Made by a program: the position numbers
Shown: one piece after another, positions 51,001 to 57,000 of the stretch
Layout of the letters: the number at the start of each line of letters is the position of its first letter
Numbering within the stretch: position 1 is the first letter of the stretch
From: Gavia stellata
Lineage: Eukaryota
NCBI RefSeq assembly: GCF_030936135.1
Contig: NC_082627.1
Span: forward strand, 141,172 to 205,171
Direction: 5' to 3'
Length of the DNA stretch: 64,000 bases

Positions 51001-54000
51001 CAATCTTGCTGAACGGGCCCCTTGTGCCATGGGCCCTGGGCAAACAAAGCTTATCAGAGATGCTGCGGGGACAAACATCCCTCCTCTTGCCAGCGGAGCT
51101 CTGTCCCTGCAATTACGTCCCAGTGGCTGCCTGGGGACAAGCACTCGCTTCATCGTGTCCCTCTAAATGGCCACATCCTGCTCAGGGACAGCGCTGGCCT
51201 GGGCCAAGGACGAGGGCATTGAAGGGACACTCCGTGGGGACAAGGGCCTTTGGTGAGCTGTGGCCAGGTCCCAGGCAAGGACAGGGCTGGAGCCAGAGCC
51301 TTGTTGGGGACGGGGTCACTGGGAGCCACCGTCTGGGGGCAGCTCTGCAGGGTGGGACCCATGCTGTCTGGAGGGCACGGTGGCCCCAGGCAGTGGCAGG
51401 GTGACGGCCAGGGCAGGGGATATTCCCCTCTGTTCTCTGCTCTGGGCAGGCCGTGGCTGGGGACTGGACCAGTTTGGGGCCTGCAGTGCAAGGGAAATGC
51501 GGTGGGCTGGAGCTGGGCGCTGCGAGCACCCCAGCACTTCCCCCAAGCCAAGCCATCATCTCCCGGTGCCCAACATTCACCAGTGCTCCTCACTGCCGGT
51601 GCCTCATGGGACTGAAGATGCCAGTCACCCGGCTGTCCCCATTGTCCGTGCCCCCAGTTGTCCTCCCACCTCCCAGCGTGCCCTAGTCCCGGGGTCCCTG
51701 GTGCCCCAGGAAGAGGGGTCAGTGCCAGCCCCCCATTTACCCAAGGGCCTGGAGAGGGCTCAGAGACAATTCTGCTTAGAGACCCCTGGTTTGAGGCTGG
51801 TGTCATCTCTGGGGTCGTCCTGGAGGGAAAGACTGGCCTGGGAGTAAAGGCGGCACTGGGAGATGTCAGTGCTGGGAGGTGAGGGGCACTGGGAGATGGG
51901 GGGACCTGGCTTTGTGGGGCTGCTGGAGGATGGTTTCGTGTTAGAGCAGTGGGTCGTCACCATAGGGTTCCGGCTGTGAGGGGCACACTGCCTACCCCAC
52001 CTCACCACCCGCAGATGCCTGGGCCCATCCCCGTGCAGCTTCCCCATGCAGGAAGCTGGACTGATGCTGGGGAAGGTGTCCGGATCAATGCTGGAGGTGG
52101 GGGTGACTCTGTGCCTGGGCTGGGCTTGTTGCCAGGGCTGGTGTCTCTGCCAAGCCTGGCTTTGCCCTGGGGGCTCTCGGCTTGGGGAGGGGCAAGGAGG
52201 AGTCCTGGGAGGCATAAATCTGCCCCTCACCTTCTCCAGCTTCACCCAGGACACACCACACCGCAGAGGAAGATGAAGGTCGCAGTGCTCAGCATGGCCC
52301 TGCTCTTCGCAATCCTGCTGTGCACTCCAGAGGATGCTCAGGTGAGTCCCCAATGCCCTGGGGCGGGGCTCAAGGCTGGGGATGGGTCTCGGCTGCAGGA
52401 CATCAGCTCTCCTGCAGAATGAAATTGTAGTGGTGAGCACGAAACCCCTTGACTTGGCCTCTCCCCTTCCCAAGCAAGGAGCTCCTCCAGGGTCCCCTGC
52501 ACGTCCAGCCCCAGGCAATGCAGCTTTCTCCCTCCCACACTTCTGACTGTTCCCTCCACTTCACCTGCAATTAAGATGCTGGTGCCCAGAGCCCGAGTGC
52601 CTCAATGAATGGTCTGACCTGTCCCTTCCCTGGGAGGGTCCACCGCAAACTCCCGTGAGGGCCCCCACCGCTTTCTTGTCTTGGTGCCCCCACATCCCTC
52701 CTTTTTGGGTCTTCCTATCCCATCCTTCTGGTCCTCTCAGATAGCTGCTCCCCAGGATCTCCTCCACGTCCTATGCAGGTTCCCCAAATGCCCTCCCTTT
52801 GTTTGCTCCCGATGCCTTTCTTTCAGTCTTTCCCCTCAGTCCTTTGCCTTTCATCCTGTCCACTGCTGTAGTGTCCCAGATTGCCTACCTTGAACCCCCA
52901 CTCCCAAACACTCTCCCTGTCCCCTCATTTTGGTCCTCTGCGCTCCCCTTCCTTCTGCCCCCACCAACCACCTTGCTTGAAGTCCCCGTATGCCCTCCAT
53001 TTTAATTCCTTCACCCGTCACTTGCATCCCACGCAGTCCTGTCCATTCAACACCCCCAGCCCAGTCCCTTGGGGCCTGCTAATTCACCCCCACGCCCTGC
53101 CTTTGGTTCCTCCCCACCCCATCCTCTTTGGAGTGCATGAATTCCCCACGCTATCCTTGCTTCCATCCCTACTCCTGCTCCCTGCATGAAACAGGTATTC
53201 CAGGTGAAACCTGGATGAATGGGGCTGGGGGGAGCAGAAAGCCTTTCCCCCCTCAGTCCAGAGGGAAGCCATGGGTCTGGGGGGGGCTGGGGATATCTGT
53301 GTCCCACCCACAGCCCTACCAAGGTCCAGTTCAGACCACGCCTTTGCTCTCCTTCCCTAGGCACTCTTGGAAGGAAATACTACATCCCCGGTAAGTATTG
53401 GGGTGGACTTGGAGGGCATCCAGGCTAGGGAACGGGAGGGCACTTTGGTCCTCCCATCCCTTGCTGGAACAGGGGACATCCCTGTGACCAGTGAGGTCTC
53501 ATGGTCTCTCTACAGGTGGGGTTATTGAAACCTGTGAAAGTGAATTCATTTCAGGTGGGTACCATGCGTTCTGCTACCCCCAAACCCTCCCCTCCCATGG
53601 CTGCGACACTCCGGGGCATCCCAGTGTGCCCCAGTACACCCCAGTGCAACCCCCGAGAACACCCCTGCACCCCAGTGTTTTCCCAGGGAGGTCCCCTTCC
53701 CCACAGCGCCCGCTGCATTCCCATCCATCCCATTACAACCCACTACACCCCAGGATGCCCCAGTACACAGCCATGCACCCAGGTGGGCCCCTTCCCCAGG
53801 AGTGCTTTCTCTGCACCACCAGACAAGCTCATGTACCCCGTTTCTCCCCGGAGGCACCTGCCCCAAGGACCCTGTTGCTTTCCCCTGCCTCCCAGTATAC
53901 CCCAGTGCACCCAAGCGTGTCCCTAACTCTCCTTTTCTCCCCAGGACCTTGACAATGTTGTGAAGAAGTCCCTTCTGAGACGGAGAGACGTGGCTGCCTC

Positions 54001-57000
54001 TGTTCATGTCTAGGTGAGCAGCGTCAGGGCATCTCCAGCCCCACAAAGGATCCGGGGCCCCAGGGGATCCCTCAGACCTCTGGGGTGGGCAGAATGTGTG
54101 TATGGGAGAGGGAAACAGAGGGGACTGTCCATGATCCGTGTCCCAGGGGGAGCTGGACAGAGCTGCCCCCATGCCTTTCCTTGCAACCAGTGGGGCTCTA
54201 CGGACCCAGAGGGTCACCGTGCAGGCCAGGCAGGGGCTCTGGTGACAGAAAGGCCCCAGGGATCACCATGAGGGATGGGCAGGGTTCTGGGAGATTTAGG
54301 GTCATCCCCGGGGCAATGACACATTGGGCAAGGGGCTCTAGGTGCTATATGGATCTCAGGAGGGCCAAGTCCTGTCCTAGGCATATTGAGGGCTCCAATT
54401 CCCTTCCCCGTCCCCAGGTCTCTGCAGAGAGAGACACGGTGGGGACAAGGCCCCTCTCATGTGCCAGCTGACACTGGCAGTCTCGTTTTGGGCTCTGTCT
54501 TTCAGGACTGGAACTGGTGGTGACACCCCTCTCCTGTCCCCCTCCAGCAGCATGAGGAGATGATCATCCCTGGATGACCCCACCTGATCCCCTGGGAGCC
54601 CTGGGCCATTTCCCTCCAATGATCAATAAACCCCTTCAGCAAAGCTGTGCTCTGTGTATGTCTGTGTGTGTCCGTGTGTCGGGAGTTTCCCGAAGATGTC
54701 GGGAGTTTCCCGATGCCAGGAGTTGACCGACGGTTCGCGGCTGAAGGAACAGATGCGTCCGACTCAATATGAGTGATAAAGCATAGTCCACTTTATTATT
54801 CAAGCAACACATATTTATACCGTTAGACCTAATACGCACCTACTTGTTAGATCCTAATTGGCTGAGCCTAAAACATACGTCTACTTGCAGTTTGAGCCTA
54901 ACAGTTACTTTTGTTTATGTTCTTCTACTTGCAGTTTGAGCAGCTGTATAACTCCCTTCTACTTTGATCATAACTACTTGTTATCTACATCCTCACTTCT
55001 CAAGGACGCCCAGTCCTTGCCACGTAGCCCTTATTTATTGCTTCGCTTGTAATTTTCCACAGGCCTGTCTTTGTCTCTCTCAGAACAAGCTCTGATCCAT
55101 CAGCTGCACAGGACCACCCCAGGGGCCCGCATCCTGCCCTGCACAGGACCACCCCAGGGGCCCGCATCCTGCCTTCCCACAATTCCCCCTTTTTCTTTTT
55201 GTATGAGGAGAGCTTGACCAAAACTTTTTTCCACTAGCCGGCGAAGACATGACATAACACAGCTTAAACATAATATTACTACTACTACGATTATTAAAAG
55301 CATAAAAATACTTTGTAACAGTCCTTTGAGCCATCCGTTTAGTGAAAACCACTCCGAGTATTTGCAGACCCCCCAAAAATTCCCCGACCAGATTTATTCA
55401 ACCGAGCATTCATTTCATTAACAGTTTGATTTACTGTTCCCCAGTCCGAGTCATTCAATGGCACTCCCACTAGACAAGTGATGAAAGGCACACTAGTCCC
55501 CATGCATTCTGTTTTATGTTAAACGCCGCCCTTGGTAACCCGTCCAGGACATCAGTTTAGATTAGGATTAGCGTGAGACTCCACAGGATCTTCATGATTA
55601 TTTCTGTTGTCCGATGTCTCTATCACCGCTCTTGTCCACTTCGCCGGGATCCACTGCGTACATTCTACTGCTGTTGCCAGATCCAGTCCGAGGCTCCTCC
55701 TTGTGGCGGGTTGCAGCGTACTGTCAGTAGTGGGTTGTGAGGAGACGCAGCAGTCGGTTGCGGTTGGGTCTCTACCTGTGCTGGGGCCGCCGCTGTTGTC
55801 GTAGCGCGGCAACCCTGCGCGCTCGGCTTGCCGTTTCCCGATCGTCGGCAAGCCCTGGTATCGTGGTTTGAAGATTTGCAGTTTTCACACCATACTTGAT
55901 CCACTCGGCAATCACGACGATGATGACCCTCTCTGCCACAGCGGAAGCACTGATTTCCCCGACGAGATGGAGCTCGAGACCGTTTGTCTTCTGTTCGCAG
56001 CGGGGCTAGGGCGGCAAAGGCTTGCCTCTGTGCCTGTATGATATCTTTCCCTAACTCTCGCACTGCTTCTACTAACAACACCTGATTTCCCATTGGTACT
56101 CTACTCATTTTTTCTAACATCTGTCCTCCTCTATTGCCTCTCCCATTATCTTTCTCCAGTCCACCCTTCTCCCTGTGATGAGGGCGGCTCCCCTCCTTCT
56201 GATGTTGGGGTTTTTTTTTGTTTCCCCCCCCCCCCCCCCGGGTTTTTTTTCCTTTTTTTTTTTTTTTCCCCTCTTTTTTTTTTTTTTTTCCCTCCTGGTT
56301 TTTTTCCTTTTTTTTACTTTTTTTGTTTTTTCTCCCCCCCTTTTTTTTTTTTTTCCTCCCCCTTTTTTTTTTTCTCTTTTTTTTTTTTTTCTTTTGAGAC
56401 TCGGCCACTTGCCGGGATACGTGCCCCGCATGTCACGATTTTGACCTATCTACCACTGTTACTGGGACTGGTCCCCAGCAAGGTGGCCCGGGAACTTTGC
56501 TGTTGTTAAAAAGCAAAGAGCTCTCGCCGCTTTCCCCAGGAGTCATCTCCCCCGCTCCTCCCAGCTTTTCCGTGGCTACGGCTGCAACATTCCACTCAAC
56601 CTGATATCGTTTTATAGCATTTATCACGTCTCTCCATGGTTTCATTAACTTCTTTGCTATCTTATCCTCATCTATCACAAGATCCCACAGCACATCGCCC
56701 AGATTCCTCCATGCTGTTACTTCAAATAACGAGTCTGTTGCAGTAAAACACGACTTCTCCCGCCCAAGAACAATTAAACCAGCTAAGTGCTTACACTCTA
56801 CTCCCCGCTTTTCTAAAAGGTGCTGTAAGAAATCTAGGGCTACTTCATACTCCATAACCGGTTATCCTGCACTACGGCAACAGTTATCCTGCACTATGGC
56901 AAATCCTGCACTAAGGCAAATCCTGCACTATGGCAAATCCTGCACTACGGCACATCCTGCACTACGGCAAATCCTGCACTATGGCAAATCCTGCACTACG

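Follow-up and report, generated by a model that had tools for sequence, protein, structure and literature searches.

A palindrome-borne gene of Gavia stellata and a putative bird-wide family of secreted peptides with conserved ends and a fast-changing middle

Introduction

What kind of gene keeps its promoter, its signal exon and its last exon almost unchanged among birds, while the exons between them diverge faster than its own introns? This question is raised by a compact gene at positions 52214-54650 of a 64,000-nucleotide stretch of the Gavia stellata genome (NCBI RefSeq assembly GCF_030936135.1, contig NC_082627.1, forward-strand positions 141,172 to 205,171), which is referred to here as the window and is numbered from its first letter. 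The gene lies in one arm of a long inverted repeat, and a mirror copy lies in the other. A first-pass annotation, made without database searches, had described it as a complete compact two-copy gene for a small signal-peptide protein of unrecognised identity. The comparisons presented below argue, with a probability of roughly three in four, that each arm carries one functional protein-coding gene, that this gene belongs to an unnamed family distributed across birds, and that it encodes a secreted propeptide under diversifying selection.

Gene structure

The gene of the right arm reads on the plus strand. Its conserved proximal promoter (52033-52243) contains an ETS-like CAGGAAG at about 52049-52055, a TGCCAAG motif, and the TATA box ATAAAT (52214-52219), of which ATAAA is invariant in a promoter alignment of seven species. 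The TATA box lies 59 nt upstream of the ATG (52273), with a spacing of 30 nt to an initiator (Inr)-like TCA at 52244. Exon 1 (52244-52341) would comprise about 29 nt of 5' untranslated region (5'UTR) and 69 nt of coding sequence (52273-52341) for the signal peptide MKVAVLSMALLFAILLCTPEDAQ, and ends at the donor cag|gtgagt. Exon 2 (53361-53390, 30 nt) encodes ALLEGNTTSP, its first codon completing the AQA of the likely signal-peptidase site; exon 3 (53516-53554, 39 nt) encodes VGLLKPVKVNSFQ; and exon 4 (53945-54013, 69 nt) encodes DLDNVVKKSLLRRRDVAASVHV plus a TAG stop codon that abuts the donor gtgagc. All introns of the coding region are in phase 0, and the 68-residue product is MKVAVLSMALLFAILLCTPEDAQALLEGNTTSPVGLLKPVKVNSFQDLDNVVKKSLLRRRDVAASVHV. 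A 3'UTR exon follows at 54418-54650, with AATAAA at 54625-54630 and a GT-rich element from 54650. The TATA box, exons, phases, splice sites, stop codon and AATAAA were all found in the sequence where the first-pass annotation had placed them. That annotation also had the 3'UTR exon begin near 54417; the exon itself stands, with its poly(A) signal and GT-rich element, but its acceptor is ambiguous among 54418, 54506 and 54548, of which only the latter two are conserved in all species, and a pigeon gene model splices this exon at the acceptor homologous to 54506.

This chain of exons and splice sites is beyond chance. By a splice-site matrix, the four donors of the gene are the top four within 52200-54700, and all of them exceed the 99.4th percentile for GT sites across the window; the acceptors rank 1st, 2nd and 6th. 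Both strands of the whole window were scanned for a hydrophobic ATG exon joined to two phase-0 open exons and a terminal exon, strong splice sites being required; the only matches were this gene and its mirror copy, and 0 chains were returned from 30 first-order Markov shuffles.

Other candidate coding segments were rejected. A 141-residue open reading frame (ORF) through intron 3 (53501-53926), treated as coding in some passerine RefSeq models, carries in-frame stops and indels that are not multiples of 3 in pigeon and sparrows; since the frame is not conserved between species, it is regarded as a by-product of C-rich composition. The 3'UTR exon was likewise rejected as coding, having no codon periodicity and no ORF shared between species.

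Conservation of the architecture among birds

The window was compared with loci from snowy owl, hawfinch, duck, rock pigeon, seaside sparrow and wheatear. About 5.7 kb of the window (48991-54677), from upstream sequence to the poly(A) region, is collinear with owl at 79-83% identity, except for a 218-nt insert specific to the window, and the homology ends at 54677, exactly at the start of the long terminal repeat (LTR) of an endogenous retrovirus (ERV). The five-exon structure is shared with owl, hawfinch and duck, and with two copies each in pigeon and sparrow. In an alignment of seven sequences, the TATA box, the ATG context CAGAGGAAGATGAAGGT, exon 1, every GT/AG site and the poly(A) signal are conserved, so that each structural element of the gene first described from the window alone is backed by conservation in owl, pigeon, sparrow, hawfinch and duck.

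Exon lengths differ between species by multiples of 3 only (exon 2 has 30, 36 or 48 nt; exon 3 has 39 nt, as also in owl, sparrow and hawfinch, or 36 nt in pigeon; exon 4 has 69, 66 or 102 nt), and no in-frame stop occurs in exons 2-4 in any species compared. The stop at the exon 4 border, TAG|GTGAG, is kept in owl, both sparrow copies, hawfinch and duck. In the pigeons this stop is lost, reading extends into exon 5 by one codon, and 22 unrelated residues stand in place of the tail; some pigeon gene models also add an upstream exon at a conserved AG. No annotated or Pfam-bearing neighbour genes were found within 10 kb at the 8 fetched loci.

The start of exon 4 in the window (53945-53968) encodes DLDNVV (GACAATGTTG), which matches passerine exon 3 (V/LDLDNVAV; about 2484-2522 of locus L004). 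This likeness points either to an old internal duplication behind exons 3 and 4 or to an exchange of sequence among exons.

Relatives in sequence databases

A word-index protein search with the 68-residue product gave no match, and the exact sequence is not present in a collection of 15 billion proteins. A full HMMER scan of 1.84 billion representative proteins returned two bird matches, a partial snowy-owl model, which occurs under four accessions on four contigs, and a hawfinch model. Profile searches seeded with these two models recovered about 40 predicted proteins and extended the family to at least 15 bird species. Profile matches came from house finch, band-tailed and rock pigeon, Zosterops, common myna, seaside sparrow, white wagtail and wheatear, and further ones from barn swallow, a manakin, two tyrant flycatchers, red-crowned crane and mallard. 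The avian protein search that the first-pass annotation had proposed was productive, yielding uncharacterized predicted proteins, and its suggestion of a lineage-specific gene gives way to a family widespread in birds, from duck to passerines.

The relatives are labelled as uncharacterized or hypothetical, or are mis-named ("suppressor of SWI4", "vegetative cell wall protein gp1-like", "osteocalcin 2-like"). Examples are house finch LOC132334783 (XP_059716905.1) and LOC132334803 (XP_059716955.1), rock pigeon KAK2514600.1, band-tailed pigeon XP_071669462.1, duck EOA92906.1 (Anapl_18840) and snowy owl CAM9105608.1; the models XP_059716905.1 and KAK2514600.1 use the same junctions as the window gene. 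The signal peptide of the family is near-identical, with the pattern MKVAVLS[VM]ALLF.ILLC ending at the GTGAG donor and 11 residues invariant across 11 members. Orthology is also evident in the DNA, where exon-intron structure, promoter and 3'UTR are shared at 72-93% identity, the mature peptide being only weakly alignable between orders.

The product has remained without a recognised family, as first reported, and neither name nor domain was found in Pfam, the PDB, the source annotations or the searchable literature. Pfam gave no match for the product or for 10 relatives, the family profile found no solved structure among PDB sequences, and Rfam detected no RNA family at 48-58 kb; these domain, structure and RNA-family searches produced sub-threshold noise only (DIM, E=0.2; WT1-AS, E=0.048). 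In the searchable literature, no papers were found that contain peptide strings of the family or its locus and gene identifiers. The exclusion of defensins (beta-defensins and ovodefensins) and of cathelicidins likewise stands, given that the product has no cysteine outside the signal peptide, lacks the six-cysteine motif and the cathelin pro-domain, and matches no Pfam entry.

A duck record (P0032) was considered as a metatranscriptome-derived ORF; it is a UniParc entry of unspecified evidence type and was not counted as RNA evidence. Several paralogues carry the same signal exon followed by very different mature parts (P0031, which is XP_050195119.1 of Myiozetetes, P0022, P0034 and P0040), with payloads that consist of SSESxESSEW acidic serine repeats or of glycine-rich segments ending in VKRSEP.V..VELL. 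From these sequences, the signal and promoter cassette seems to have been reused with different payloads.

Evolutionary rates

The conservation pattern of the locus is the inverse of that of usual coding genes. Conservation is 85-97% in the promoter, signal exon, splice sites, intron 2 and 3'UTR, whereas exons 2-4 have diverged at 1.5-2.7 times the intron rate. Compared with owl, identity is 93% in the signal exon, 92% in the 3'UTR exon, 88% in intron 2 and 76-79% in the other introns counting gaps (81-83% at aligned positions), and only 50%, 59% and 58% in exons 2, 3 and 4, respectively; expressed as window-owl divergence, exon 2 stands at 40% and exon 3 at 41%. At aligned positions, the divergence of exons 2-4 and of introns was 41% and 18% for window versus owl (Fisher p=1.5e-9), 51% and 19% for window versus pigeon (p=3e-15), 36% and 21% for owl versus pigeon (p=3e-4), and 45% and 30% for window versus sparrow (p=4e-4).

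Protein-level estimates were obtained by the Nei-Gojobori method. In the signal exon, the ratio of nonsynonymous to synonymous divergence (dN/dS) is about 0.2, and substitutions at the three codon positions (14/5/23) follow a coding pattern. For exons 3 and 4 of window and owl, dN is 0.735 and dS 0.396, a ratio of about 1.9, with substitutions spread evenly across codon positions; the 3'UTR (46/43/44) shows no periodicity. Recent paralogues differ in the same direction, as all five differences in pigeon exons 2-3 alter an amino acid and so do four of the five differing codons between the sparrow copies.

Non-coding parts of the locus are also strongly conserved. The last 100 nt of the 3'UTR (54550-54650) are its most conserved part, at 87-97% across owl, pigeon, sparrow and duck, which suggests a candidate post-transcriptional control element. 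Intron 2 (53391-53515, 125 nt), which separates the two micro-exons of 30 nt and 39 nt, shows 88-91% conservation among Neoaves with no change in length, and it may act as a splicing scaffold for these exons. A hairpin in this intron (GGGAGGGC/GTCCTCCC) has one compensatory pair in the alignment fold, but the overall covariation term is about 0, and a conserved RNA structure was judged not convincing.

Predicted product

The likely signal-peptidase motif is AQA in window, owl and pigeon and AKA in passerines; duck has AKV instead. Exon 4 carries a basic cluster, which is RRR in the window, RQKR in finches and sparrow, RKR in duck and QQKR in pigeons. The C-terminal seven-residue peptide is partly conserved, as is the basic site. 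The first-pass proposal that the tribasic RRR might be a prohormone-convertase site agrees with the mostly conserved R-x-K/R-R of the relatives, although owl lacks the site, and the N-glycosylation site that it had marked, NTT, is indeed present in the window product but is confined to this species. The mature peptide has a net charge of +3 in the window and -5 in duck, the two extremes of its range. For the exon-4 peptide, five species were tested, and in each of them the helical hydrophobic moment was no greater than in shuffled sequences.

Palindrome, copy number and flanking sequence

The right arm of the inverted repeat (48263-64000) is cut by the end of the window and measures at least 15,738 nt; because it reaches the window edge, the true arm may be longer. 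The left arm (23664-39401) is its mirror, and the arms are separated by a spacer of 8,861 nt (39402-48262) of unique sequence with a CR1 long interspersed nuclear element (LINE) inside. Arm mismatches occur at 6 of 15,738 positions (48272, 49180, 53296, 58345, 62367 and 63554), a divergence of 0.04% and an identity of 99.96%. The mirror gene copy lies on the minus strand at 33014-35450, as first annotated, with its TATA box at 35445-35450 and coding exons at 35323-35391, 34274-34303, 34110-34148 and 33651-33719. Its exon translations are identical to those of the right-arm gene, the sole difference being the mirror of 53296 in intron 1. The idea that arm-specific single-nucleotide polymorphisms (SNPs) could separate the transcripts of the two copies does not hold for this reason, as spliced reads cannot distinguish copies whose sole SNP is intronic. 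The 64-kb window contains no further paralogues of the gene.

Both arms contain an ERV remnant (LTR-gag-LTR) on the minus strand, antisense to the gene, at 54677-57874 and in mirror position at 29790-32987. Its gag carries a zinc knuckle, its 505-nt LTRs mismatch at 2 sites (0.4%), and its target-site duplication is TCCGTG. The insertion point lies 27 nt past the poly(A) region of the gene, and the element is not present in the owl, pigeon and duck loci. The arms differ by 0.04% and share an ERV whose LTRs are 0.4% apart, and they were therefore duplicated or homogenised after the ERV insertion. Their similarity implies either a very recent duplication or ongoing gene conversion from arm to arm, to judge from the sequence.

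The gene is multi-copy wherever it was examined and sits in young duplications of high identity. Rock pigeon has a head-to-head pair (locus L006, 572-3316 and 9744-12468) whose arms are 94-99% identical and lie about 6.4 kb apart; in owl, two contigs of one assembly share a duplication of at least 13.5 kb at 99.95% identity; seaside sparrow has tandem copies about 9.7 kb apart; hawfinch has a rearranged tandem array; and band-tailed pigeon has models on four different large scaffolds. The inner boundary of the palindrome lies a few hundred bases upstream of the TATA box in pigeon and about 4 kb upstream in the window, and because these boundaries differ the two palindromes appear to have formed independently. 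A duck contig (KB754720.1, locus L005) shows at 3930-5018/5019-6107 a perfect spacerless inverted repeat just downstream of the gene, which is probably a short-read assembly artefact.

Upstream of the gene, about 0.8-1.25 kb before the transcription start, a conserved block on the plus strand (51009-51486) is a candidate enhancer, with 70-74% identity to duck, sparrow, hawfinch and Oenanthe and 78-82% to owl and pigeon. This block is GC-rich, and a second copy lies farther upstream at the owl locus (L001, 2652-2866). The 218-nt stretch missing from the owl locus (50709-50928) appears to be a GC-rich unit of about 100 nt that was duplicated locally in tandem.

The window DNA is of avian type, with several CR1 LINE copies besides the retrovirus. 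Each LTR edge of the ERV has two GGGAGTTTCC motifs that resemble NF-kB sites, and a 17-nt tandem repeat occurs inside the ERV at 56886-57159. The spacer, mainly at 42.4-45.9 kb, harbours a near full-length CR1 LINE with ORF1, endonuclease and reverse transcriptase ORFs, and CR1 copies in the left flank (3777-5717 and 18476-19543) pair with it in inverted orientation at 92-97% identity.

Alternative explanations

Several observations weigh against a functional gene for a secreted peptide under diversifying selection. In duck, exon 3 is degenerate or lost and a small exon has been gained inside intron 1. Owl has no basic site at the homologous position. The AlphaFold2 model has low confidence, with a predicted local distance difference test (pLDDT) score of 58, a centre modelled as disordered and a C-terminal helix that is tentative. 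Cleavage of the signal peptide was judged by rule, and the splice-site matrix is an approximate vertebrate one. Among the protein-search hits there was no chicken, reptile, mammal or other non-bird member. The database models of the family are automatic and several are plainly wrong, through intron read-through or fused exons: in owl the model runs on into intron 2, in hawfinch two tandem signal exons have been joined, and among passerines there are RefSeq models that cross intron 3. The acceleration is also not uniform, dN/dS between hawfinch and sparrow being about 1.1 with dN near both the divergence of the introns and that of the locus overall; these rates fit relaxed constraint as well as positive selection.

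The last point is what a locus whose peptide has no function would share, that is, one that is transcribed and spliced with selection acting on the RNA or regulatory ends only, or one whose ORF drifts like that of a pseudogene or a non-coding RNA. Such a locus would fit a passerine dN/dS of about 1, a 3'UTR and promoter more conserved than the coding sequence, and a mature part with no domain, cysteines or confident fold. However, the frame, the multiple-of-3 exon lengths and the exact stop have been kept from duck to passerines despite 40-57% nucleotide divergence, although a random frame of 46 codons would stay open with a probability of only about 0.11 per lineage; the signal exon is under clear purifying selection on the protein; and drift cannot exceed the intron rate. 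A functionless peptide is thus very unlikely. A prohormone or neuropeptide-type precursor, in which the C-terminal 7-8 residues (DVAASVHV, LAASLDA, SLSAALHA) would be the active ligand and the variable middle a spacer, is suggested by the layout of signal peptide, variable and often acidic region, R-x-K/R-R site and short tail, and by the tail pattern [LV]-[AS]-[AV]-[SA]-[LVA]-[HD]-[VAG], the best-conserved mature part. Yet the tail follows no basic site in owl (PPKSLAVSADV) and is the part exchanged for 22 unrelated residues in pigeon, its conservation at the end of exon 4 may stem from the adjoining splice donor, hormone precursors are normally single-copy and conserved and not found in duplicated segments, and neutral evolution sets the upper limit for a spacer, whereas the observed rate is 2-2.7 times that of the introns. 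This precursor type is accordingly held to be improbable.

A conserved signal joined to a hypervariable mature peptide, many copies and a basic site would also be expected of an antimicrobial peptide precursor of the classic cationic amphipathic-helix type, as in amphibian and other host-defence peptide genes. Against it stand the shift of net charge from +3 to -5, a hydrophobic moment no higher than that of shuffles in five species and a predicted helix of low confidence; because the charge varies and the helix is not amphipathic, an identity of this kind is highly improbable. The presence of two copies, in turn, might be doubted, since arms that are 99.96% identical, with the outer junction of the right arm beyond the window, could be an assembly artefact of one true copy, and the old duck contig contains an obvious artefactual palindrome without a spacer. 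The arms nevertheless mismatch at 6 positions and enclose 8.9 kb of unique spacer with a CR1 element, and independent assemblies of rock pigeon, owl, sparrow and hawfinch are multi-copy as well, so that an artefact is quite unlikely. A protein-coding gene in each arm, with a secreted propeptide under diversifying selection, remains the preferred reading.

Proposed mechanism

Under this reading, a TATA/Inr promoter would drive transcription of the five exons. A signal peptide of about 24 residues, encoded by exon 1 together with the opening codon of exon 2, would direct co-translational entry into the endoplasmic reticulum, where signal peptidase would probably cut after AQA (AQA|L) and release a cysteine-free, largely disordered peptide of about 44 residues. 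A second cut may occur at the basic site (LRRR|DVAASVHV in the window; RQKR or RKR in relatives), which would free a tail of 8 residues. Promoter, signal peptide, splice sites and 3'UTR would be held by purifying selection and the secreted part driven by diversifying selection, and recurrent duplication together with arm-to-arm gene conversion would keep the copy number above one. The combination of conserved export elements, a fast but frame-kept secreted part and repeated duplication leads to the proposal that the peptide meets a rapidly changing extracellular partner, which could be a pathogen or immune target or a reproductive partner. A broader proposal is made more tentatively, as its chances are judged to be somewhat short of even: an undescribed bird-wide family of secreted peptides in which a conserved cassette has been duplicated repeatedly, with palindromes arising independently in at least two lineages, and presents a short peptide under strong diversifying selection.

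If this holds, a gene family extending from duck to passerines, now scattered as mis-modelled "uncharacterized protein" records without literature, would be defined. Annotation pipelines mishandle its exons of 30 nt and 39 nt, and short-read assemblies likely collapse the copies. The locus would also offer one of the clearest arms-race signatures available, with exons evolving at about twice the intron rate while frame and export signals are kept, and a signature of this kind would point to an extracellular interaction in bird immunity or reproduction.

Comparison with known systems

The REST genes, which are associated by report with the work of Lundwall and colleagues in the 1990s, are said to encode rapidly evolving substrates for transglutaminase and to include the semenogelins, the rodent SVS genes and elafin, at the WFDC locus. 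As in the window gene, the 5'UTR and the signal peptide share exon 1, the penultimate exon closes with the stop codon, and the last exon is 3'UTR only; the first and last exons are conserved and the secreted part evolves very fast, a likeness of architecture only. However, REST genes have three exons with the mature protein on a single one, whereas the window gene has five, three of them tiny phase-0 exons for the mature part, and the Q/K-rich transglutaminase repeats of REST genes are not evident in it. No REST or mammalian protein was among the hits of the protein-sequence searches. Membership in this group is not supported because the gene has five exons and not three.

The SCPP genes, reportedly delineated by Kawasaki and Weiss, are said to encode secretory calcium-binding phosphoproteins, among them the caseins, statherin/histatins and FDCSP, in a cluster linked to SPARCL1. 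Like the window gene, they specify small secreted proteins from short exons with all introns in phase 0, the signal exon being the conserved part; they expand by tandem duplication, and their milk and saliva members have the stop codon in the penultimate exon and a last exon of UTR. A separate non-coding exon 1 would be expected of an SCPP gene, whereas the TATA box of the window gene lies directly before its signal exon, an alternative first exon being possible; and the SxE motif that follows the signal peptide in SCPP proteins is missing from the window mature peptide (LLEGNTTSP...). SCPP-like SSESxESSEW repeats occur in one distant paralogue only, that of Myiozetetes (XP_050195119.1). No sequence similarity to SCPP genes was found, and membership is not supported because a separate non-coding first exon and the SxE motif are both absent.

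Amphibian skin peptide precursors and cone-snail toxin genes combine a conserved signal region and UTRs with a hypervariable mature peptide, and their exons evolve faster than the flanking non-coding DNA. The window family resembles them in being multigenic, in its basic processing sites and in its evolutionary pattern. Taxa, gene structure and chemistry differ, however; the window peptide lacks a cysteine framework, and a cationic amphipathic helix is not consistently present. Membership in these groups is not supported, and no sequence similarity to them was detected.

Ampliconic palindrome genes of the Y and W chromosomes have been reviewed (PMC3403216). They share with the present locus near-identical inverted arms, a multi-copy and fast-evolving gene, and implied arm-to-arm gene conversion, but they are mostly intracellular and testis-specific, whereas the window product is a predicted secreted peptide. 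The literature found on ampliconic palindromes in birds consisted of sex-chromosome papers only. If the reading proposed here is right, palindrome-borne genes would include some that encode extracellular and not germline-intracellular products, and the locus would provide a tractable case, beyond mammals and perhaps beyond sex chromosomes, in which palindromes and segmental duplications have formed repeatedly around one small gene. By architecture, the REST and SCPP genes of mammals appear to be its closest counterparts, and by evolutionary pattern the amphibian skin-peptide and cone-snail toxin genes; the family would then be an avian counterpart of the toxin, host-defence or seminal-protein genes engaged in arms races.

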